Assembly (NCBI GenBank): GCA_035288465.1
Contig: DATEAH010000005.1
Location: 131,636 to 195,635, forward strand
Length of the DNA stretch: 64,000 nt
Direction: 5' to 3'
Source: Patescibacteria group bacterium
GTDB lineage: Bacteria > Patescibacteriota > UBA1384 > DATEAH01
Part shown: positions 3,361 through 62,781 of the stretch, one piece after another
Layout of the letters: every line of letters begins with the position of its first letter
Numbering within the stretch: the stretch's first letter is position 1
The notes under the pieces: generated by a model
Seen by the model: the letters and a program-made list of their open reading frames with translations, nothing else
What the model was told of the DNA's origin: nothing
Databases searched by the model: none
Program-made: the position numbers and the translations under genes

Positions 3361-3444
3361 TGGTTTGTGCCTCCTGTGTGTTGAGTTGTTAATGTCCAGC
3401 TGTGCAATTATTATACTTTAAAAAAATCTTTTACTCAAGCAAAA

Positions 3445-17173: not shown

Positions 17174-17278
17174 ATAGGCATTCGAGGCTAACTTTAGCTT
17201 CGTTCGTGATATTGTTCGTTAACAAAACCCTTCGGGGTTAAACTTTCCGCCTCTGCGGCGGAGAAGGAGGTGTTAACC

Positions 17279-18241
17279 GTGAGGTTGGCACTTGCAATCG
17301 TCGTGTTGCTCGTTGTTGCTGCGTCAGTCACATTGGCGCAGTCGGCCCCAACCTGCGTGGTCGTCGTTGACCCGCAGGCCGAGTACGGCTACGGCGGTTA
17401 TGGGGGGTACGACGGGAGCTACTATTACAGCTCCCAACTCTCCCAGATCGCCAAGCAGGAACTGGAGGCTGCGCTCAGCGAGCGCGGCTGGCTGGTTCTG
17501 CTCAATGCCTCGGACGTCGGTCCGACCCAGGAGGAGTTGCTTCTTGAGAACTCCGAATGGGGCATCAACGGCAGAAATCGCCAACCTATCGGTGATTTCA
17601 CCGGAGCAACAGAGACATTTCTTGTCTCCGCCTTCACATTTGGCGGCCGCGATTTTGAACTCGCGGCTTGGCTGGATGATGCCTATCCTTCGGTCCGACT
17701 CTCGGACCTACGGGTGAAGGCGATTATCCGGCGTTCGTCAACGCGGACCCGGGAGGTTCCCGCGGTCTATGAGGGCTACGGCTCGAAGCGGATTGTCAAA
17801 GACGTCCGCTTGGGTATCCAGTCCTCGCGGAATTTCTGGGGTGGTCTTGTTCAATTGGCAAGCCAGGCTCTCGAAGCTGGTTTAACTGATTGGCAAGACG
17901 CCGGACGAGCCGCCGCACGAGGCGCCATCGAAAATGCCCTTCGGGGTATTGAAGCGCCACGCCAACTGGCTCCCACAACCAGTTCGTCAGCTTTCACAAG
18001 CGCTGACGCGCAAACGTCAACCCCCCGGTACATTTTCCTAATGCTTTATGGTCAGGAAGTTTCCGAGGGCGACCGCTTCGGCATTTGGCGAGACAATCGT
18101 CAGATCGCCGAGGTTGAGGTCGAGTTTGTCCGCTCAGACAACCGAGCATCCTGTCGAGTACTTCGCAGCTCGGTTCCTGATCTTGGCCGCCCCGGCGACT
18201 CCGCCCGCAGTCTCACCCCGACCATCCCCATAGAGCAGTAG
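17279..18241 (+). CDS. secreted protein of unknown function, GC-rich (~60% GC) in an AT-rich backbone
   Basis: GAAGGAGG SD, GTG start at 17279 (ORF-track start 17270 sits directly on the SD); signal peptide RLALAIVVLLVVAASVTLAQS; Gly/Tyr low-complexity YGYGGYGGYDGSYYY; no recognised domain. Confidence 0.55.
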   Translation: MRLALAIVVLLVVAASVTLAQSAPTCVVVVDPQAEYGYGGYGGYDGSYYYSSQLSQIAKQELEAALSERGWLVLLNASDVGPTQEELLLENSEWGINGRNRQPIGDFTGATETFLVSAFTFGGRDFELAAWLDDAYPSVRLSDLRVKAIIRRSSTRTREVPAVYEGYGSKRIVKDVRLGIQSSRNFWGGLVQLASQALEAGLTDWQDAGRAAARGAIENALRGIEAPRQLAPTTSSSAFTSADAQTSTPRYIFLMLYGQEVSEGDRFGIWRDNRQIAEVEVEFVRSDNRASCRVLRSSVPDLGRPGDSARSLTPTIPIEQ

Positions 18242-35633: not shown

Positions 35634-35650
35634 AATTGTAAACAAAAAAT

Positions 35651-35721
35651 GGGCCTGGCAGGGATCGAACCTGCGACATGACGCTTATAAGACGTCCGCT
35701 CTGCCACTGAGCTACAGGCCC
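35651..35721 (-). tRNA. tRNA-Ile (anticodon TAT)
   Basis: GGGCCTG/CAGGCCC acceptor, D-arm GCTCAGTGGCAGAGC, anticodon loop CTTATAA (UAU), T-arm GCAGGTTCGATCCCTGC, discriminator A. Confidence 0.7.
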
Positions 35722-35853: not shown

Positions 35854-36348
35854 ATGTCAAACCCAAGAACTCCCTTAACCCAAATTGGCGAATTGCTTGG
35901 AATTGGTGACTTGGCCGAATACATCTTGCACGATCTGAATCCTGAATACCCTGCCTTGTCCCTTAGAATATCTGACTTAAACCGCGAAGTGGTGTATCAG
36001 TCTTTGCTCGAGATGGTTCTTCAAGCTTTAGAGGGCGACCGGATCATCAACCAGCCCACTTCTCCACTTAGATTGGCAATCGGTCCAGCAGTAGAAGCCT
36101 GCCGAGCCTACAATATTCTTTATGGCACGCTTGGTCGCCGCGGCACGCTTGGTTTACCGGAAAAACATTTTAGCGAAATGATTTGGCCCTATCAACTGGC
36201 CCTGACCAATTTCTTGGAACGTCCAGCAGATAAAACAGATGAAAACGAAGTTAAGATTTTAACTGAGTTCTTGGAAGGACTTCTTGGGTTCTTGGTCTGG
36301 GCAACTGCGATGATTCAGGAAGGATCTGACCCCTTTGACAGAAAATAG
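35854..36348 (+). CDS. hypothetical protein (164 aa), no recognisable domain
   Basis: GGAGGT SD + ATG; ~47% GC versus ~34% backbone. Confidence 0.5.
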   Translation: MSNPRTPLTQIGELLGIGDLAEYILHDLNPEYPALSLRISDLNREVVYQSLLEMVLQALEGDRIINQPTSPLRLAIGPAVEACRAYNILYGTLGRRGTLGLPEKHFSEMIWPYQLALTNFLERPADKTDENEVKILTEFLEGLLGFLVWATAMIQEGSDPFDRK

Positions 36349-36409
36349 TTTCATACGTTATCCATTTCGCCTGATGCGCACCGCGAGCAACCAGCAGAGG
36401 TGAGCTGAG

Positions 36410-36880
36410 ATGGCAGATAATGACGCAGTATCGCAAGTTGCTAATGCTTTTAATCTTGCTGCAGTAGTCGAGGCGATTCTTTATGAAGATTGGGAGACAC
36501 TTTTCAGCGGTCAAGGACATGCTAAAGGTGGGGCGGCAGAATATGAAGCTAATCGATTGGAAAGATTATCACACGTTACTGCGTTTCTTGAATCGGCAAT
36601 AATCGGTTATGAAATAATTATTGACCCAGGCCAAGCTACTAGATACGAAGGTGATTCAGCAAATACCTTTTGTAATAACTTCAGATTAGTTCAGTCTGCT
36701 TTTGAGAAAAATGAAATTAAAGATATTGAGCAGGCTTATCGGCATCTTCTGAATTTAGTTGAAATATTAAAAACCGTCCCCGAAATCATAACTAAATTAT
36801 TCGAGCTTCGTAATTCCTTAGGAGCGCTTGAAAGTCAATTACGAGACCAAGCCAAACAAACTCTTGGAGTGGAGGGGTGA
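36410..36880 (+). CDS. hypothetical protein (156 aa), no recognisable domain
   Basis: SD/start cassette AGGTGAGCTGAGATGG. Confidence 0.5.
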   Translation: MADNDAVSQVANAFNLAAVVEAILYEDWETLFSGQGHAKGGAAEYEANRLERLSHVTAFLESAIIGYEIIIDPGQATRYEGDSANTFCNNFRLVQSAFEKNEIKDIEQAYRHLLNLVEILKTVPEIITKLFELRNSLGALESQLRDQAKQTLGVEG

Positions 36881-36886
36881 GCTGAA

Positions 36887-37411
36887 ATGGATCAGCGAGA
36901 GCTTGAGAAGAAGCATAAACCCGAAAGGTATCCAGAACTTTATGGCGAGGAGTTGATTCGGAAAACACACGAAGCGGCAATGGCAATATTTCGAACTACG
37001 GCATTTATTAAAGATCAAACTATTAGAGATTATCCCGAAAGTGTTGTCCCACAATTTGAAATTCTCTGCCAATTTCTAATTGCCTCAGGGTGCGCCTTTA
37101 AACATTTTATGACTGATCCGAACGAACGAAGTTCTATCCCGCCAACCTTTAATCATTTTGAGATGATACAGTTTTTCGTCAGATTCGCCCACACCTTTGA
37201 CAATAAATTCAGTCCCGAAATCAAAGATTATAAAGATGGTTTCGAACCTCTGACCCAACTTCTGCAGAGATTCGAACTGGCCCTTTTCAATTATATGCAT
37301 AACCCAACCCTGACTGTCACCGATGATTTTCGACAATTGGTCATTTGTATTTCTCGGACCTACGAAGCTTATTATAATGAAGGTTTTAGGCGCCATCGCC
37401 TAGCTGCATAA
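36887..37411 (+). CDS. hypothetical protein (174 aa), no recognisable domain
   Basis: SD/start cassette GGGGTGAGCTGAAATGG that contains the TGA stop of the upstream gene. Confidence 0.5.
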   Translation: MDQRELEKKHKPERYPELYGEELIRKTHEAAMAIFRTTAFIKDQTIRDYPESVVPQFEILCQFLIASGCAFKHFMTDPNERSSIPPTFNHFEMIQFFVRFAHTFDNKFSPEIKDYKDGFEPLTQLLQRFELALFNYMHNPTLTVTDDFRQLVICISRTYEAYYNEGFRRHRLAA

Positions 37412-37426
37412 TTAGAATTATCACCT

Positions 37427-37479
37427 GCCCCGTGAGGCTAAAAACACTTTTTTGCCCTGCGGGGATTTTTTTATAGGCT
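37427..37479 (+). terminator. terminator-like hairpin + T-run after the three-gene operon
   Basis: CCCCG...CGGGG stem followed by ATTTTTTTAT. Confidence 0.4.
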
Positions 37480-37533
37480 CGGTGCCCATAATCCCGCCTT
37501 CCAAGCGTTATGACAGGTAACTTTGCGGGGTGA
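37475..37533 (+). repeat. island-associated repeat copy 1 (TGCCCATAATCCCGC ... GCGGGGTGAT hairpin element)
   Basis: ~75% identical over ~90 bp to the copy at 40515-40612; shares the ATAATCCCGC...GCGGGAT hairpin with 45499-45546. Confidence 0.5.
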
Positions 37534-37673
37534 TTCAACTCGATGGCGATAATCCCGATTTTACCTCCTTGACCCCGCACAATATTTAATATTCGCGAAG
37601 ATCTACGTTCTCGACTCAAGCGTCATATATGCGGGGTCTACGCCCCGCTCCGTGCGTAGCTCTGGTGTGGGGC

Positions 37674-37702
37674 TTGACAAACCCATTTTATTTTGCTATA
37701 AT
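37674..37702 (+). promoter_or_regulatory. perfect sigma70-consensus promoter TTGACA-N17-TATAAT
   Basis: TTGACA 37674-37679, 17-nt spacer, TATAAT 37697-37702; preceded by GCGGGG-TCTAC-GCCCCGC hairpin; drives the L,D-transpeptidase gene. Confidence 0.5.
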
Positions 37703-45429: not shown

Positions 45430-45498
45430 TTTCGCCTCCTTGGATATTATATTGGAATTTTAAATCTGATTCAAATTATTCGATGTCGTCATTAAGGG

Positions 45499-45705: not shown

Positions 45706-46629
45706 TTATTTAGCTAAAGTGCGTGAGGGACATTTCGGTTTTTTGGGTTTCGGCTGATATGTAGTTGGATCATCATATGGAGTACGCTTTCTATTATGGA
45801 TCAGCCATTCTCGCAATTCTCGTTGATATTGTATTTCAGCATATTCATAATTTAACAGTTCCTGGGCGCAATTTTTAATTTGTTCGCAATTTTCAATTTC
45901 CAAACCATTCTCGAGCCGCAAGACTCCAGCCAAATCATATCGTGACCGGTCTGTCCAATCAGCTTGTATCTCTTGGAAGGCTTGTTCTGGATTCGCAATC
46001 AACTCTTGCAATTCGGAAAATCTTTTGACTTCATATTCTTTCTCTATCTCACTAGCTTTAAATGTGCCGATTGTGTAACTTGTGACGCCAGCATCAAGAA
46101 GTTCTTGCCTTCTGATAATCCATTTCAGTAAAATTGTACCAGCAGTTCGATAGTAATAAACCATTTCCCGATGATTTGGAGATGATTGGTGAAGATGTTT
46201 TCTCAAATCCGAATCTTCAAAATAACCGAAAACCTGACCTTTTTGGGGCATAATCTCTGATAATTCTCGATGCTTGGTCAGCAATTCATCTTCCGGGACA
46301 TCAGGTGAGGCTAGCACTAAATCTACGATTTCCTGCAAAAGGCTTCTCGCCTGATCCGCAATGACTCGGTCAGTGGTGAGCTGCTTGACGGCCATTTGCG
46401 ACACCTCCGGTGGTTGGGTTTTCAGTCGATCTGTATCAAAACCCGAAAGAAGATGCACGGCTCGTTCTGCTTCTCGTTGTTCTGCCTCGTTAACGCAATA
46501 TGTTCCACCAGAATTATTGGGATGTTTTATCTGCGCTCGAATTCGTTCAAATTTTGCATGAATCGGCGTCCAAACCCGGTTTGGCCGTCGTTTTCGCAAA
46601 CCTCTCACCTCCGTAGGCATTAATAACAT
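45706..46629 (-). CDS. hypothetical protein (307 aa), GC-richer than backbone, no recognisable domain
   Basis: long ORF; a GGAGGTGA SD sits before an internal TTG, so the start is uncertain; divergent from the structured GC-rich RNA region. Confidence 0.45.
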   Translation of the reverse strand: MLLMPTEVRGLRKRRPNRVWTPIHAKFERIRAQIKHPNNSGGTYCVNEAEQREAERAVHLLSGFDTDRLKTQPPEVSQMAVKQLTTDRVIADQARSLLQEIVDLVLASPDVPEDELLTKHRELSEIMPQKGQVFGYFEDSDLRKHLHQSSPNHREMVYYYRTAGTILLKWIIRRQELLDAGVTSYTIGTFKASEIEKEYEVKRFSELQELIANPEQAFQEIQADWTDRSRYDLAGVLRLENGLEIENCEQIKNCAQELLNYEYAEIQYQRELREWLIHNRKRTPYDDPTTYQPKPKKPKCPSRTLAK

Positions 46630-49887: not shown

Positions 49888-49912
49888 GGCGGAAAAAAAG
49901 AGCCGAGGCTCG
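49888..49912 (-). terminator. rho-independent terminator after the 7-gene island operon
   Basis: minus strand CGAGCC-TC-GGCTC then TTTTTTT. Confidence 0.45.
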
Positions 49913-49951
49913 AAAACTGGTGTTGTTGTCGAACAACGGCTGTTAATTTTT

Positions 49952-50134
49952 TTAAAATTGTAATTTTTTAATTGCTAAGGCAAGTCCCGAAATAATAATG
50001 GCAATTGCCAGAAGATACAACCCTAAACAAATCCAAATGTGTAGATTTTGCCCCAGAGAAATAGCGGCTCCAATCATTGAGAAACATCCACAAACAAACA
50101 TAAAAATGCCTAAGCCAAACCAGGTTATCTTCAT
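49952..50134 (-). CDS. island operon gene 7: small 2-TM membrane protein (60 aa)
   Basis: ATG overlaps upstream TGA (ATGA); preceded by GGAGGGATAAGAG. Confidence 0.5.
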   Translation of the reverse strand: MKITWFGLGIFMFVCGCFSMIGAAISLGQNLHIWICLGLYLLAIAIIISGLALAIKKLQF

Positions 50135-50412
50135 CTCTTATCCCTCCAGATTGATACTTTTTTAACTGTTTTGGCTTTTAGGATTTTATTTTCTGTGTCA
50201 AATTCTAAAATTTCAAATGTCTGTGCATCTACTTCAAACACAGTTACTTTCTGACCCGTGAATTGATTGGTTGCAAATGCTGTAGCGAGAATCATTTGTA
50301 AATTTAGTCCTTGTACTTTTTCAATACGACATTTCTTAGCATCATCTATATAAACGTCCACATAATCCCCAGCATACACCGTGAGAAGAGATATTTTTTC
50401 TGCCGTTGCCAT
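50131..50412 (-). CDS. island operon gene 6: hypothetical protein (93 aa)
   Basis: preceded by CCAGGAGGCGATGAGAG-ATG cassette. Confidence 0.55.
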   Translation of the reverse strand: MATAEKISLLTVYAGDYVDVYIDDAKKCRIEKVQGLNLQMILATAFATNQFTGQKVTVFEVDAQTFEILEFDTENKILKAKTVKKVSIWRDKR

Positions 50413-50450
50413 CTCTCATCGCCTCCTGGAGTTTGTGGTTCGGCTTGATT

Positions 50451-50891
50451 CTAATCTTGCAACCGTGTTACGACTTGATTGCAAAGAACTTCAAACCGTT
50501 TGATTGCATCATGCGATAACCTTAAACTTGAAAGAGAAATTTTCCCATTATTATCGATGGCTTGGATAATCTCTTGGCAAGTAGGCACAACCACTTCTTG
50601 CAATTTATCAATTGCCTCGAGGTCATAATTGCCTTCCAAAGGAATTGAGAGATTGGCAGCTTGTTTGGAACAAATATCTCTGACTTCTGCCGAAAGCTCC
50701 TCAAATTTTGCTGGAAATGTGGTTAAAGGACGGCGATCATCTTCGTTGAGTTGCTCAAGAAAGTATTTAAGCTCTTCGGGCCCATGCATATGCATCTTCC
50801 AGACGCATTCAAGAATTTCCATAACTTCATTGGCTCTCACGAGATAAGCAGCAAGCATAATCCGAGTGACGACCGCTGGCATCTGTTCCAT
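50451..50891 (-). CDS. island operon gene 5: hypothetical protein (146 aa)
   Basis: preceded by TGGAGACGATGAGAG-ATG; the upstream gene's TGA lies inside the cassette. Confidence 0.55.
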   Translation of the reverse strand: MEQMPAVVTRIMLAAYLVRANEVMEILECVWKMHMHGPEELKYFLEQLNEDDRRPLTTFPAKFEELSAEVRDICSKQAANLSIPLEGNYDLEAIDKLQEVVVPTCQEIIQAIDNNGKISLSSLRLSHDAIKRFEVLCNQVVTRLQD

Positions 50892-50894
50892 CTC

Positions 50895-51356
50895 TCATCG
50901 TCTCCATAAGTCTTCGATTTGATCTTGAACTTCTTGAGCCAAAGCCTTACCTTTATCGGTTAAAACCACCAAATCTTGATCATTTATTTCAACAATTCCA
51001 GCAACTACAGCTTCGTCAAGAATCGTGAGAGGATGATTGGCATCAAGTAAAATCGCAATTCCATAATCTGCTGATTTTACGATGACTGCTTGAAGTAATT
51101 CCAAATGTTTCTCACGAATAAGACAACTCATAACTTCATTAGAAACACCTAGATGATACGAGATTACATTTTCAATACCTTTCATAAACCCTGTAATGGT
51201 TTCTGGGCAGAGAATTTGCAAACGTGCTCTTTGGTAATCTTCTTCAGGCATACGACGGGTCCACATATCAATATAACAACACCCGCTTGCCTCTATTTTG
51301 TGTAAATCGTCAACTAGATCACCCAAAGTTTTTCTGGCTTGATTGTTTTCGCTCAT
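50895..51356 (-). CDS. island operon gene 4: hypothetical protein (153 aa)
   Basis: preceded by CCAGGAGGCGATGAGAG-ATG. Confidence 0.55.
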   Translation of the reverse strand: MSENNQARKTLGDLVDDLHKIEASGCCYIDMWTRRMPEEDYQRARLQILCPETITGFMKGIENVISYHLGVSNEVMSCLIREKHLELLQAVIVKSADYGIAILLDANHPLTILDEAVVAGIVEINDQDLVVLTDKGKALAQEVQDQIEDLWRR

Positions 51357-51405
51357 CTCTCATCGCCTCCTGGGTAGGGGTTGTAAAAACCTGGACGGGC
51401 GAATA

Positions 51406-52167
51406 TTACTGTTGATTTTGAAGATTCATAATCTCACGTGCGAGCATGTTTAAGTAAGTGCAAGCATAAGTTCTCATTAAAAATGCTTGAGGAACGCGAT
51501 ACCCGCCATGAATCTCTGCCCGCAAAACATCAAAAATACCATGCCAAGAATCATCTGATCCGGAAAAATCGCCCTTGGCGAAAGGCTCAACTGTTTGGCG
51601 TTTACAATTGATCTCACTGCGTTCCAATTCTACATCTCTTTCGAGAACAAAATTAGAGGTATCAGTGTAGGGCGGGAATTTAATTAAGAGCAGGGCGCCT
51701 GAACCTGGACCAAGACTGATATAATCAGAATCAACCCAATTACATTTTCGATCATGACCATTATCAGCGTCCAAAAATTCACCAAGCCATTTCATTCTTT
51801 CTTTAATGGGAATATATTTTAATATTCGGGAAATTGGCGAATAAATTTCCTCGCCGACTCTTTCTCTGAGTTTTGTCGGTTCAGTGGGAGAATTTATCCA
51901 TCTGCCTATGTCTTCAATAAACCCATCAAGACATTCTCCAAAAGCATTTCTTTCGATTTGGCAATTCTGCTCATGAGATATTTTTCCGGAAGAAATCGCT
52001 TCGATAATCGGTGGCCAAATCAGGATCGGCGCAATTTCAATTTGATAGCCAACCTTTTCCTCGCAAGGCGGTTTTGCCCTTCCATAATGGCATCGGCATT
52101 GATGACGAAAAGGAGTCATTGCCATGGGGAAGTTAAAACGATGCAGATAGGGCATAGGGTCTGCCAT
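51406..52167 (-). CDS. island operon gene 3: hypothetical Cys-rich protein (254 aa)
   Basis: start moved to ATG at 52167 (MADPMPYLHRF) preceded by CGGAGGCAATCGAG; the ORF-track GTG start 52209 has no SD. Confidence 0.5.
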   Translation of the reverse strand: MADPMPYLHRFNFPMAMTPFRHQCRCHYGRAKPPCEEKVGYQIEIAPILIWPPIIEAISSGKISHEQNCQIERNAFGECLDGFIEDIGRWINSPTEPTKLRERVGEEIYSPISRILKYIPIKERMKWLGEFLDADNGHDRKCNWVDSDYISLGPGSGALLLIKFPPYTDTSNFVLERDVELERSEINCKRQTVEPFAKGDFSGSDDSWHGIFDVLRAEIHGGYRVPQAFLMRTYACTYLNMLAREIMNLQNQQ

Positions 52168-52201
52168 CTCGATTGCCTCCGTGGTGAGTTTTGAATCAGA
52201 A

Positions 52202-52420
52202 TCAAGCACTTATTTCAAATACATTATCACCAACAGGCGTCACATGAAATGTCATACTATAATCAAAGAGTAGAGACACTGTCAACACGTTAATTTGTTT
52301 GTATGTTCCTTTAATTTTAACCTTACCGTTATTCTTTAATATAAAAGAATGCAAATCATCAACGGTAAGCGAACCAGCATCAAGAACCTCCTGCTCTTGA
52401 CGAGATTCTGCCTCTGCCAT
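52202..52420 (-). CDS. island operon gene 2: hypothetical protein (72 aa)
   Basis: preceded by CAAGGAGGCGATCGAG-ATG. Confidence 0.5.
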   Translation of the reverse strand: MAEAESRQEQEVLDAGSLTVDDLHSFILKNNGKVKIKGTYKQINVLTVSLLFDYSMTFHVTPVGDNVFEISA

Positions 52421-52443
52421 CTCGATCGCCTCCTTGTGGTGTC

Positions 52444-52551
52444 GGATTACTATGTTTGCGCAAAACGTAAAAATTCAACAAGCAGCCATCCTACAAAAGT
52501 AGTATCAAAAAGGATAACAGAAAGACACACCATCGCTTCTTTGACACTCAT
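52444..52551 (-). CDS. island operon gene 1: small hydrophobic peptide (35 aa), not in ORF track
   Basis: CCAGGAGGCGATCGAG-ATGAGT; MSVKEAMVCLSVILFDTTFVGWLLVEFLRFAQT. Confidence 0.4.
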
Positions 52552-52619
52552 CTCGATCGCCTCCTGGGGAGTTTGGGATTCCAAATTGTTAAAGTACTGG
52601 CTCTTCGTAATTAGGTAAA

Positions 52620-52628
52620 TTATAGCAT
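52620..52628 (-). promoter_or_regulatory. extended -10 element TGCTATAAT upstream of the island operon
   Basis: minus-strand TGnTATAAT ~45 nt upstream of the first cassette. Confidence 0.35.
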
Positions 52629-52739
52629 AATTTGGGAAAAATAAAAATAGGAACTGTCAAAGTTCCCCAAATTTTCAATTTTAGATTTGTTGTTTGTAAT
52701 CTATTGTTGATTATCCACTGTTAATTGCTTACTGTTAAT

Positions 52740-53282
52740 CTATTCTATGCAGCAGTCGATCACTTTTTTAACCAAATCTCCCATTTTGCCGAGAACGCCT
52801 TTTTTGCTTTTGTCGTGAACATTTAAAGCTTGACCGCCAATTTTGCTAATTCCGGCCACGTCAATGGCACCCATATTAAGGCCCCAAAATAAAGAATAAA
52901 GTTGATATGATTTTGAAAAATAATCTTCAGCTTCTTTGTCTTTACCCATGGTTTGCGCTTTGGTGCCAACTTCCATCAAACGCATGGCGGCGGCTAACAA
53001 ATGCTTTGACAGACACCAAATTTCGCCTTCCGGATTTTTGACTAATTTTTTAAGCAATTCTTTGCGCATTTCGCGGACTAAATTTAACATTTTTAAATAC
53101 TTGGCTTTGCCGGTTTTTTCCGCGGTAAAGAAAAAATGTTCTTCAATTGAGACTAAATTCATGACGGCAATTGATAAATCTTGGTCGGATGACAGATCTA
53201 ATTTCTGCTCCTTTTTCATCTTGCTTACTTTAGCTAATAATTGATCAAGTTTATCTTTTTGAGAAGAATTTTTTTTCGGCAT
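52740..53282 (-). CDS. hypothetical protein (180 aa)
   Basis: long ORF, Lys-rich, no recognised motif. Confidence 0.45.
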   Translation of the reverse strand: MPKKNSSQKDKLDQLLAKVSKMKKEQKLDLSSDQDLSIAVMNLVSIEEHFFFTAEKTGKAKYLKMLNLVREMRKELLKKLVKNPEGEIWCLSKHLLAAAMRLMEVGTKAQTMGKDKEAEDYFSKSYQLYSLFWGLNMGAIDVAGISKIGGQALNVHDKSKKGVLGKMGDLVKKVIDCCIE

Positions 53283-53450
53283 AAGACCTCACTTTACTAA
53301 ATTTCTAATTATTCTAATTGACCTAATTAACCTAACCAATCCCCAATTATTAAATGTCCAATGTCTAAATTTTGGTCATTTTTTTATTTTATTATTGGGA
53401 TTTGATTAGAATAATTAGACTAATTGGGTTAATTCGACATTTTCCCTATT

Positions 53451-53981
53451 TTATTTTCTAGTGACAAAATAAAAAACTACGGTTAATAGAGCTAAGGGCA
53501 AAATTGGCATCACAATTTTTTGGAAGGCAAAATAAGCCCTGCCGCCATGACGTTTTTTCAAAAACGCATAAGTTAAATCACCAGCCAAAAAGAAAATGCT
53601 GCCGACGGCAAGTCCGAAAATAAGCTTATCAATTCCCCAAATTTTGTTTAAGGGATGTCCCAAGATTTCGGTATAATATAACGGAATTAAAATCGAGGTA
53701 TAATAAACCAAAGCGACCACCAATAAATCGCCGGGGAAAGTGTAATGCCTTTTTTTCATCCAAGAATATGTCCACAGGGTCGTGGAAACAATTAAACCGC
53801 CAATCCAAAGACCGGAAATAGTATCATCAACGCCCAACCAACGCGAAAGTCCTAAGCTGGCGCCAACCGCGATTGTGCAAACCGGACAAACCGCCCCAAC
53901 CTTGGCAATTGGCAAAAAAATTCCCACTAGGGGCGCTAAAATATATGAGAAAAATTTAATTAATTTAAATGATTTTTTCAT
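53451..53981 (-). CDS. integral membrane protein, unknown function
   Basis: 176 aa, ~5 TM helices, CPVC motif. Confidence 0.45.
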   Translation of the reverse strand: MKKSFKLIKFFSYILAPLVGIFLPIAKVGAVCPVCTIAVGASLGLSRWLGVDDTISGLWIGGLIVSTTLWTYSWMKKRHYTFPGDLLVVALVYYTSILIPLYYTEILGHPLNKIWGIDKLIFGLAVGSIFFLAGDLTYAFLKKRHGGRAYFAFQKIVMPILPLALLTVVFYFVTRK

Positions 53982-62504: not shown

Positions 62505-62781
62505 TCCGGTGTAGCTCAGTGGTAGAGCAGCTCGCTGTATATCGTTGCAGCCCCCAAAGGTAACTTTGAGGTGAAAATCGGGTTAATTGTCGGGAAGCCC
62601 CGCTTAAGTGAGGTAATCCGCAGCCAAGCCCGCCGAAGAGGCGTGGAAGGTTCAGAGACTATACGCCCGATTCCGCACCCGTCAATTTGACGGACGGAAA
62701 TGAGATAGTCCACTCCTAAAGGTAACTTTAGGGTAAAGTGTAACGAGAAGGTCGCTGGTTCGAATCCAGCCACCGGAGCCA
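62505..62781 (+). tRNA. tRNA-Asn (anticodon GTT) interrupted by a ~202-nt intron in the anticodon loop; CCA encoded
   Basis: 5' exon TCCGGTGTAGCTCAGTGGTAGAGCAGCTCGCTGT, 3' exon TAACGAGAAGGTCGCTGGTTCGAATCCAGCCACCGGAGCCA; spliced loop CTGTTAA; closely resembles E. coli tRNA-Asn. Confidence 0.7.
62539..62740 (+). ncRNA. group-I-like intron within tRNA-Asn (between anticodon-loop positions 35/36)
   Basis: 5' exon ends in U pairing with G of an intron GCAG guide-like sequence (U.G); intron ends in G; contains AGAGACTATAC P7-like element; no ORF. Confidence 0.55.

Follow-up and report, generated by a model that had tools for sequence, protein, structure and literature searches.

A near-identical translation start region before seven orphan genes of a Patescibacteria operon: a strong start signal, most likely copied

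Introduction

Why should seven consecutive genes that show no relationship to one another each begin behind nearly the same short sequence? The question is raised by a block at positions 49888-52630, minus strand, of a 64,000-nucleotide stretch of DNA from a Patescibacteria group bacterium (contig DATEAH010000005.1 of assembly GCA_035288465.1, positions 131,636 to 195,635 of the forward strand). The whole stretch was analysed and is called the window below; positions are those of the window. An earlier description, made from the letters of the DNA only and referred to here as the sequence-only reading, had noted a shared Shine-Dalgarno (SD)-spacer-ATG cassette before each gene and had left the choice between an unusual cassette array of unknown genes and an imported or engineered block. 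The cassette repeat is real and unusual, and it is robust statistically. Most likely, the cassette is a copied strong start signal, and neither a new mechanism nor an engineered insert. The block is read here, with a probability of roughly 0.55, as a native, species-restricted seven-cistron operon whose start region was copied, standardised to one strong form and kept by selection.

Results

The block holds seven tiled minus-strand open reading frames (ORFs), g1 to g7, encoding proteins of 33, 72, 253, 153, 146, 93 and 60 aa. Five of the sizes given earlier (72, 153, 146, 93 and 60 aa) were reproduced; the other two, 35 and 254 aa, were corrected to 33 and 253 aa. The ATG codons of g1 to g7 are located at 52551, 52420, 52167, 51356, 50891, 50412 and 50134. 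Intercistronic gaps measure, in order, 29, 34, 49, 3, 38 and -4 nt, and the repeated element fills nearly all of each longer gap.

Every one of the seven ATG codons is preceded by GGAG(G/A)(C)(G/A)AT(-/G/A)(C/A)GAG. A seven-way alignment of the cassettes contains 12 invariant columns (GGAG, AT and GAGATG), in agreement with the earlier claim of a near-identical cassette before seven consecutive genes. Two subtypes were distinguished. Type A, found at g1-g3, reads GGAGGC(G/A)ATCGAGATG, i.e. GGAGGC(G/A)ATCGAG-ATG, and has an 8-nt spacer after GGAGG; type B, found at g4-g6, reads GGAG(G/A)CGATGAGAGATG, i.e. GGAG(G/A)CGATGAGAG-ATG, and has a 9-nt spacer. The g7 cassette is a variant, GGAGGGATAAGAGATG. 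Along the block, the subtypes are therefore ordered by position as AAA, BBB and then the variant.

All start regions are on the minus strand. Start region 1 (52549-52580, type A) consists of the G-free tract AATCCCAAACTCCCCA followed by GGAGGCGATCGAG-ATG. Start region 2 (52418-52449, type A) has the tract TAATCCGACACCACAA, then again GGAGGCGATCGAG-ATG, and occupies the entire 29-nt gap after g1; start region 3 (52165-52196) is a type A variant made up of ATTCAAAACTCACCAC and GGAGGCAATCGAG-ATG. Similarly, start region 4 (51354-51386, type B) comprises TTACAACCCCTACCCA and GGAGGCGATGAGAG-ATG, and start region 6 (50410-50442, type B) comprises CGAACCACAAACTCCA and GGAGGCGATGAGAG-ATG, these two copies being identical at 20/20 nt. 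Start region 5 (50889-50905, a type B variant), GGAGACGATGAGAG-ATG, overlaps the end of g4, and start region 7 (50132-50147), GGAGGGATAAGAG-ATG, the most divergent copy, lies within the g6 coding sequence. The cassette had been described as the same whether intergenic or overlapping the upstream gene. This did not hold, as the copies of g5 and g7, which sit in the 3' ends of g4 and g6, are the ones that diverge most. In the five intergenic copies, the 16 nt upstream of the SD sequence contain 0-1 G and are 81-88% C+A.

The strict pattern was found seven times in the 64-kb window, each time in the block, against 0.0014 matches expected and none in 200 Markov simulations; this significance test is post hoc, since the data themselves supplied the pattern. 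With up to 3 mismatches, the type B 17-mer gave 3 matches in the window versus 0.06 expected. When 20-nt upstream regions were aligned, the mean pairwise score was 9.1 in the block versus 2.85 (standard deviation 1.8) over 1326 pairings of genes from the rest of the window. Beyond the ATG the similarity is gone: identity over +4 to +18 is 0.276 in the block versus 0.304 for other genes, in line with the proposal that the cassette is conserved as a nucleotide element and not as coding sequence. No further copy of the strict pattern was found in the rest of the 64-kb window or in ~13 kb of extra flank, and within that range the motif does not serve this genome as a general start context. The cassettes gave no Rfam match and showed no conserved RNA fold (mean folding z = -0.34; no common hairpin).

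The cassette sequence GGAGGCGAUC corresponds to the classical extended Shine-Dalgarno sequence GGAGGUGAUC (RNA form AGGAGGUGAUC) with one U-to-C change, an identity missed by the sequence-only reading. Duplex energies were predicted with the canonical 16S tail GAUCACCUCCUUUCU, which may differ from the host's own. With this tail, SD-type complementarity is present upstream of every start codon of the block, at -8.6 to -18.1 kcal/mol (mean ~-13.6), as compared to a mean of -7.1 kcal/mol (standard deviation 4.7; strongest -17.0) for 52 other genes. The predicted pairing continues through GAU(C), with a single C-A mismatch. Extended SD sequences using anti-SD bases 5' of CCUCC (AAGGAGGUGA, AGGAGGUGAU; reaching ...GGUGAU) are lineage-specific (PMC10783764; PMC13009471).

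Start regions elsewhere were compared with the cassette. A C/A-rich tract followed by GGAGG is also present at 3374(-), 46408(-), 35840(+) and 45439(-) and, just past the window end, at L274 4325(+), each with a different spacer. The spacer CGAT(C/GA)GAG occurs in 0/52 other genes and GAG before ATG in 3/52. Since the cassette spacer is without match in other strong starts, a single organism-wide optimum does not explain the identity of the seven copies. The genes at 3374(-), 35840(+) and 46408(-) are without Pfam family and have C/A-rich tracts of 0-3 G before GGAGG; the gene at 45439(-) is a PF03479 (PCC) gene, the leader of which is G-free but richer in A/T. The 3374 leader resembles that of g3 and the L274 4325 leader that of g2. 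The site at 46408 implies that ORF 45706-46629 truly begins at the internal ATG 46395.

A second locus of interest, called island 2 (35854-37411, plus strand), comprises three orphan genes in an operon that has a promoter and a terminator of its own. Cistrons 2 and 3 share GGTGAGCTGA(G/A)ATGG, a variant specific to this operon; here, as in the seven-gene block, a start region is reused within one operon. Island 2 is directly adjoined by a tRNA-Ile gene with anticodon TAT (35650-35721, minus strand). After its terminator, 37460-37700 is GC-rich and non-coding with several possible hairpins, and gave no Rfam match at E <= 1.

Signals delimiting the transcription unit were located as follows. Upstream, a terminator-like hairpin of the preceding conserved gene (52649-52667, minus strand; GGGAACTTTGACAGTTCCT then ATTTTTATTT) marks where the unit is bounded upstream. 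The extended -10 promoter element TGcTATAAT was read directly in the sequence at 52627-52619 (minus strand), where a TGnTATAAT promoter had been claimed; a consensus promoter scan did not list it, a good -35 being absent. Between this element and g1 lies a leader of ~60 nt. At the downstream end, the hairpin and T7 terminator described earlier was recovered at 49893-49941 (minus strand) as a long hairpin of -18.2 kcal/mol followed by U7, with z = -5.2 against shuffles, none of which folds as stably. The co-directional, tiled ORFs are thus bounded by one promoter and one terminator, as in an operon. A strong internal promoter-like match (11/12) is located within g2 at 52285-52256, and a second transcription start is possible there; in the region as a whole, 9 promoter-like matches were observed versus 8.5 expected by chance.

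The gene products were analysed individually; all genes are on the minus strand. g1 (52450-52551, 33 aa), uncalled in the NCBI annotation, is hydrophobic with one predicted membrane helix, and g7 (49952-50134, 60 aa) has two predicted membrane helices. g2 (52202-52420, 72 aa), g5 (50451-50891, 146 aa) and g6 (50131-50412, 93 aa) belong to no family; the g6 stop overlaps the g7 start (ATGA). g3 (51406-52167, 253 aa) is an orphan with a Cys/His-rich N-terminus, and g4 (50895-51356, 153 aa) is an orphan whose TGA stop falls inside start region 5. Both g1 and g7 are small and hydrophobic, while the other five proteins have acidic N-termini unlike signal peptides; from their sequences, two of the proteins look like small membrane proteins and five like soluble ones.

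As the sequence-only reading had stated, none of the seven proteins has a recognisable domain: Pfam, PHROG, PADLOC and NCBIfam returned nothing above threshold. PADLOC matches were sub-threshold only (E >= 0.0047), so the block does not qualify as a known anti-phage defence system. A PDB sequence search with g3, g4, g5 and g6 gave no significant match. In remote homology searches, the only significant match was the query itself, for g3 among 5.8 billion and 1.84 billion proteins and for g4 among 5.8 billion proteins. Two weak g3 matches (P0002 and P0003; 1.84 billion representatives) were rejected as repetitive proteins giving spurious multi-family matches. For g1, g2, g5, g6 and g7, the check for homologues covered 90% clusters and the family libraries. 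AlphaFold models made without alignments (AF2; predicted local distance difference test, pLDDT, 33 for g3 and 42.7 for g4) were too poor for a fold search. No paralogy among the seven proteins, or with other orphans of the window, was detectable by BLAST, which upholds the earlier statement that the proteins are not paralogous; detectable paralogy does not explain the repeat. Phage similarity was sought as well: there was no significant PHROG match, no match in 50,697 phage records and no relative of g3, g4, g5 or g6 in IMG/VR.

The composition of the block is close to that of its surroundings. GC content is 39.96% in the block versus 37.95% in the rest of the window, replacing the 43-46% versus ~34% given earlier; coding GC is 39.0% versus 37.3%, and GC at third codon positions (GC3) is 0.317 versus 0.318. 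As its GC3 equals that of the backbone, the block is compositionally native. Within the window, a true GC island exists only at 17-18 kb, where a 323-aa ORF with a signal-peptide-like N-terminus (17270-18241, plus strand) has ~52% GC versus 38% and, unlike the block, a compositionally foreign look; no Rfam match was obtained in that region.

Genes g2-g7 correspond to hypothetical proteins VJJ80_01705-01730 of a metagenome-assembled genome (MAG) annotated as 'Patescibacteria group bacterium', whose NCBI proteins HLC38820-HLC38826 carry locus tags VJJ80_01705-01735. The block was recovered in 11 Patescibacteria contigs of 14-206 kb from JGI, ENA and Logan assemblies, 100% identical or with one single-nucleotide polymorphism (SNP), at the same site and with the same neighbours. 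Source sites are represented by JGI 3300025289, 3300025313, 3300025319 and 3300025325-3300025327 and by ENA ERZ272547xx-ERZ272548xx. The 11 contigs are clonal, with two SNPs in total and identical gene content. An imported origin was rejected, given that GC and GC3 match the host, that the chromosomal site is the same in all 11 contigs and that no phage or viral similarity was found. In one contig, L024 (JGI 3300025313), a single SNP at about window position 50453 abolishes the g5 stop, giving a 181-aa g5 and an 82-aa g6; either a genuine variant or a fault of the assembly may lie behind it.

The upstream gene (52740-53282) has >7,880 Patescibacteria homologues, its best non-self match being 73% identical. 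Synteny through this gene was tried as a route to an orthologous operon and abandoned, the nearest relative being only 73% identical and the block absent: in 3 relatives, other genes follow the upstream gene and its membrane-protein partner. With other genes at the equivalent position in these relatives, the seven-gene block is lineage-specific. The upstream pair itself (52740-53981, minus strand), a 180-aa protein and a 176-aa membrane protein, is conserved across Patescibacteria. Homologues of the 180-aa protein are 60-73% identical, and it has no Pfam family and no known function.

Pattern scans were carried out on larger collections, a metagenome search for the cassette having been proposed with the sequence-only reading. 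IMG/VR yielded 18 single chance matches and no second multi-copy locus. Among the matches listed, both GTDB genomes (>=120, i.e. at least 120, the host MAG not being among them) and JGI metagenomes (likewise at least 120) gave single chance matches only, again without a second multi-copy locus. Of the JGI metagenome matches listed, the low-GC ones represent a PEP-carboxylase coding motif, GFWPGGDRDGNPF.

A tRNA gene was found at 62506-62776 (plus strand), with acceptor TCCGGTG...CACCGGA and normal D and T arms; a group I intron (Rfam RF00028, 81-82 bits) splits its anticodon loop. The tRNA, possibly Thr-UGU, was missed by ARAGORN.

Discussion

The reading that we favour can be put as follows. 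The block would be transcribed as one message (about 52612 to 49893), from the single extended -10 promoter through the ~60-nt leader to the single intrinsic terminator, and each cistron would carry its own copy of one strong translation-initiation region. Long gaps (29, 34, 49 and 38 nt) predominate, so that ribosomes would have to be recruited afresh at each cistron, each thus requiring a start region of its own. This region would have three parts: a nearly G-free, C/A-rich tract of ~16 nt, providing an unstructured landing site for the ribosome; an extended SD sequence, (A)GGAGGCGAU(C), differing from AGGAGGUGAUC by one U-to-C change; and the start codon, separated from the GGAGG core by 8 nt in type A and 9 nt in type B. 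The predicted effect is strong, independent and roughly equal initiation on seven cistrons, and equal output is what would be expected of subunits of one assembly. As to origin, one junction sequence would have been copied within the operon while it was being built, and purifying selection would then have acted on the copies.

Copying is favoured by two features taken together, namely that the positions which do not pair with rRNA (the C after GGAGG and the GAG before AUG) are operon-specific and that the subtypes are grouped as AAA/BBB. Island 2, with a shared variant of its own, likewise favours copying of junctions within each operon. Four points weigh against this explanation. No mechanism is demonstrated here for a transfer of just 20-35 nt that leaves out the flanking coding sequence. 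The operon was recovered in clonal copies only and has no diverged relative from which purifying selection on the cassette might be gauged. The AAA/BBB grouping taken alone has a chance probability of ~0.1. Finally, with the canonical tail the conserved C faces A1534 as a mismatch, so that rRNA pairing leaves its conservation unexplained.

This last point is where the first alternative enters. The seven start regions may have converged under selection for rRNA pairing if the 16S 3' tail reads GAUCGCCUCC, with G instead of A at E. coli position 1534; no copying would then be needed to account for the shared C. With a G1534 tail, GGAGGCGAUC would be a perfect Shine-Dalgarno sequence of 10-12 nt, and continuous helices of -19 to -23.5 kcal/mol are predicted for g1, g2, g4 and g6. 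GGAGGC also precedes other genes (3374-, 9785-, 45439-, two in L274 and two in the relative L150), and in part of the Parcubacteria the anti-SD region varies or escapes detection (PMC9297842), which favours a variant tail. Against it, ..GGTGA.. precedes 36410+, 36887+, 39849+ (AAGGTGATCC), 42394-, 46408- and a gene of L150 (GGAGGTGATAGC) and fits the canonical A1534, and UCACCUCC is kept in all 15 anti-SD groups listed by PMC10783764. A variant tail would also leave unexplained the invariant GAG before ATG and the loss of the terminal C pairing in type B. We consider convergence possible but unlikely.

The second alternative is a translational operator: a single RNA-binding protein or small RNA, which the operon itself may encode, would bind a shared SD-spacer-AUG element and turn all seven cistrons on or off together. 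Common sequences overlapping the SD and AUG of several cistrons are known from the targets of T4 RegA and from the GGA sites of CsrA/RsmA. That the positions beyond rRNA complementarity (C, GAG-AUG) are operon-specific and missing from other strong starts is what an operator would predict, and the operon-specific variant of island 2 fits as well. The locus differs from the RegA and CsrA type in that neither a regulator, nor a GGA motif presented by a hairpin, nor an antisense RNA was found: family library searches detected an RNA-binding domain in none of the seven proteins, and the window contains no complementary cassette copy even at <=3 mismatches. The element is moreover without conserved structure and tolerates two spacer lengths (8 and 9 nt). 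An operator is accordingly rated as rather unlikely.

A third possibility is a gene-cassette array built by recombination, in which a ~30-nt element is the junction for serial insertion of unrelated genes and the start region doubles as a recombination site. The block does consist of unrelated genes parted by one repeated element, ORFs g4 and g6 run into the downstream element and take their stop codons there, similar leaders precede other orphan genes (3374-, like g3; L274 4325, like g2), and relatives lack the block at the corresponding place. A precedent for arrays in which repetitive intergenic sequence lies between unrelated genes is rAID-1 (bioRxiv 10.1101/471110). Integron arrays and the rAID-1 clusters of Bacteroidales, the nearest functional analogues, share a repeated intergenic element with our locus and differ in that a tyrosine recombinase (IntI or XerD family) is present, the repeats are structured and attC-like, GC is skewed and content varies (10.1101/471110). 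Here, the Pfam lists of genes called up to ~10 kb to the left and right include no recombinase or integrase, the junctions have no inverted repeats, hairpins or attC-like structure, and there is no GC skew, so that the earlier suggestion of a cassette array fails in the integron sense. Gene content is also constant in the 11 contigs, all from one clonal population, and no second multi-copy locus appeared among the matches listed in the viral, genome and metagenome scans. Such an array is considered improbable. The same low standing is given to a form of it that does without integron-type integrase or attC, in which the ~30-nt element (nearly G-free C/A-rich tract, GGAGGCGAT, spacer, ATG) is a portable junction joining orphan genes into operons. 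If that were true, the same process would also have produced the leaders at 3374-, 46408-, island 2 and L274 4325+.

Ancient tandem duplication of a gene with its start region, followed by divergence of the coding part while the start regions stayed under selection, appears very improbable. The positional grouping of subtypes (AAA/BBB) agrees with it, g2 and g6 share GAGATGGCAnnGGCAGAA, which reaches codons 2-5, and a VDDLH stretch close to the N-terminus is common to g2 and g4, though not significant. Protein lengths, however, span 33 to 253 aa without a significant BLAST pair, and mean identity past the ATG is not raised; the structure models of g3 and g4 were too poor for a fold comparison.

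A synthetic construct or an assembly artefact, which the reuse of one ribosome-binding site in the manner of synthetic operon design might bring to mind, is effectively refuted: many independent assemblies (JGI, ENA and Logan) yielded the block at 100% identity, with the same neighbours, in Patescibacteria contigs of 14-206 kb, GC3 equals that of the host, and the copies are imperfect, two of them being embedded in coding sequence. With host-like GC3, one site in 11 environmental contigs and no viral similarity, the earlier suggestion of an imported or engineered block is abandoned.

Set beside known systems, the copied start region proposed here has partial counterparts only. Synthetic operons with a standard ribosome-binding site likewise provide one start region for every cistron and equalise expression; they differ from the present block, which is natural environmental sequence with imperfect copies and host-like codon composition. 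Extended SD start regions of the AAAGGAGGUGAUC type, known from Bacillota, Thermotogae, some archaea and their phages, have in common with the cassette the core plus GAU(C) pairing 5' of CCUCC, the 8-9 nt spacing and the strong predicted duplexes (PMC10783764, PMC13009471). Elsewhere, only the rRNA-complementary part is shared and spacers are free, whereas here an imperfect version (C for U, GAG-AUG) is near-identical at seven genes.

Stewart et al. are said to have described, in 1998, a module of Bacillus phage SPO1 with many early promoters. This host-takeover module is, like our block, a tight cluster of small, mostly unknown genes with strong ribosome-binding sites of the kind that highly expressed genes carry (PMC6873191). 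It is phage-borne, whereas the present block lies in a chromosomal context, has a single promoter and showed no similarity to PHROGs or phages, and is for want of phage context or homology not classed as an early or host-takeover module.

No new mechanism is required so far. The value of the locus is limited by an uncultivated host and by proteins that, where searched, have no detectable relatives (the remote search covering g3 and g4 only). If the favoured reading is true, the block is a clean natural example of a ribosome-binding site standardised across a whole operon, an arrangement more usual in synthetic biology, and the phylum that bears it has atypical ribosomes and start signals on which little work has been done. 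The block would offer a natural set of variants for Patescibacteria initiation, with 8 versus 9 nt spacing, C versus U opposite position 1534, and intact versus coding-sequence-embedded copies. It would also flag a species-restricted module of seven proteins that are probably made in equal amounts, a hint that they may form a complex.

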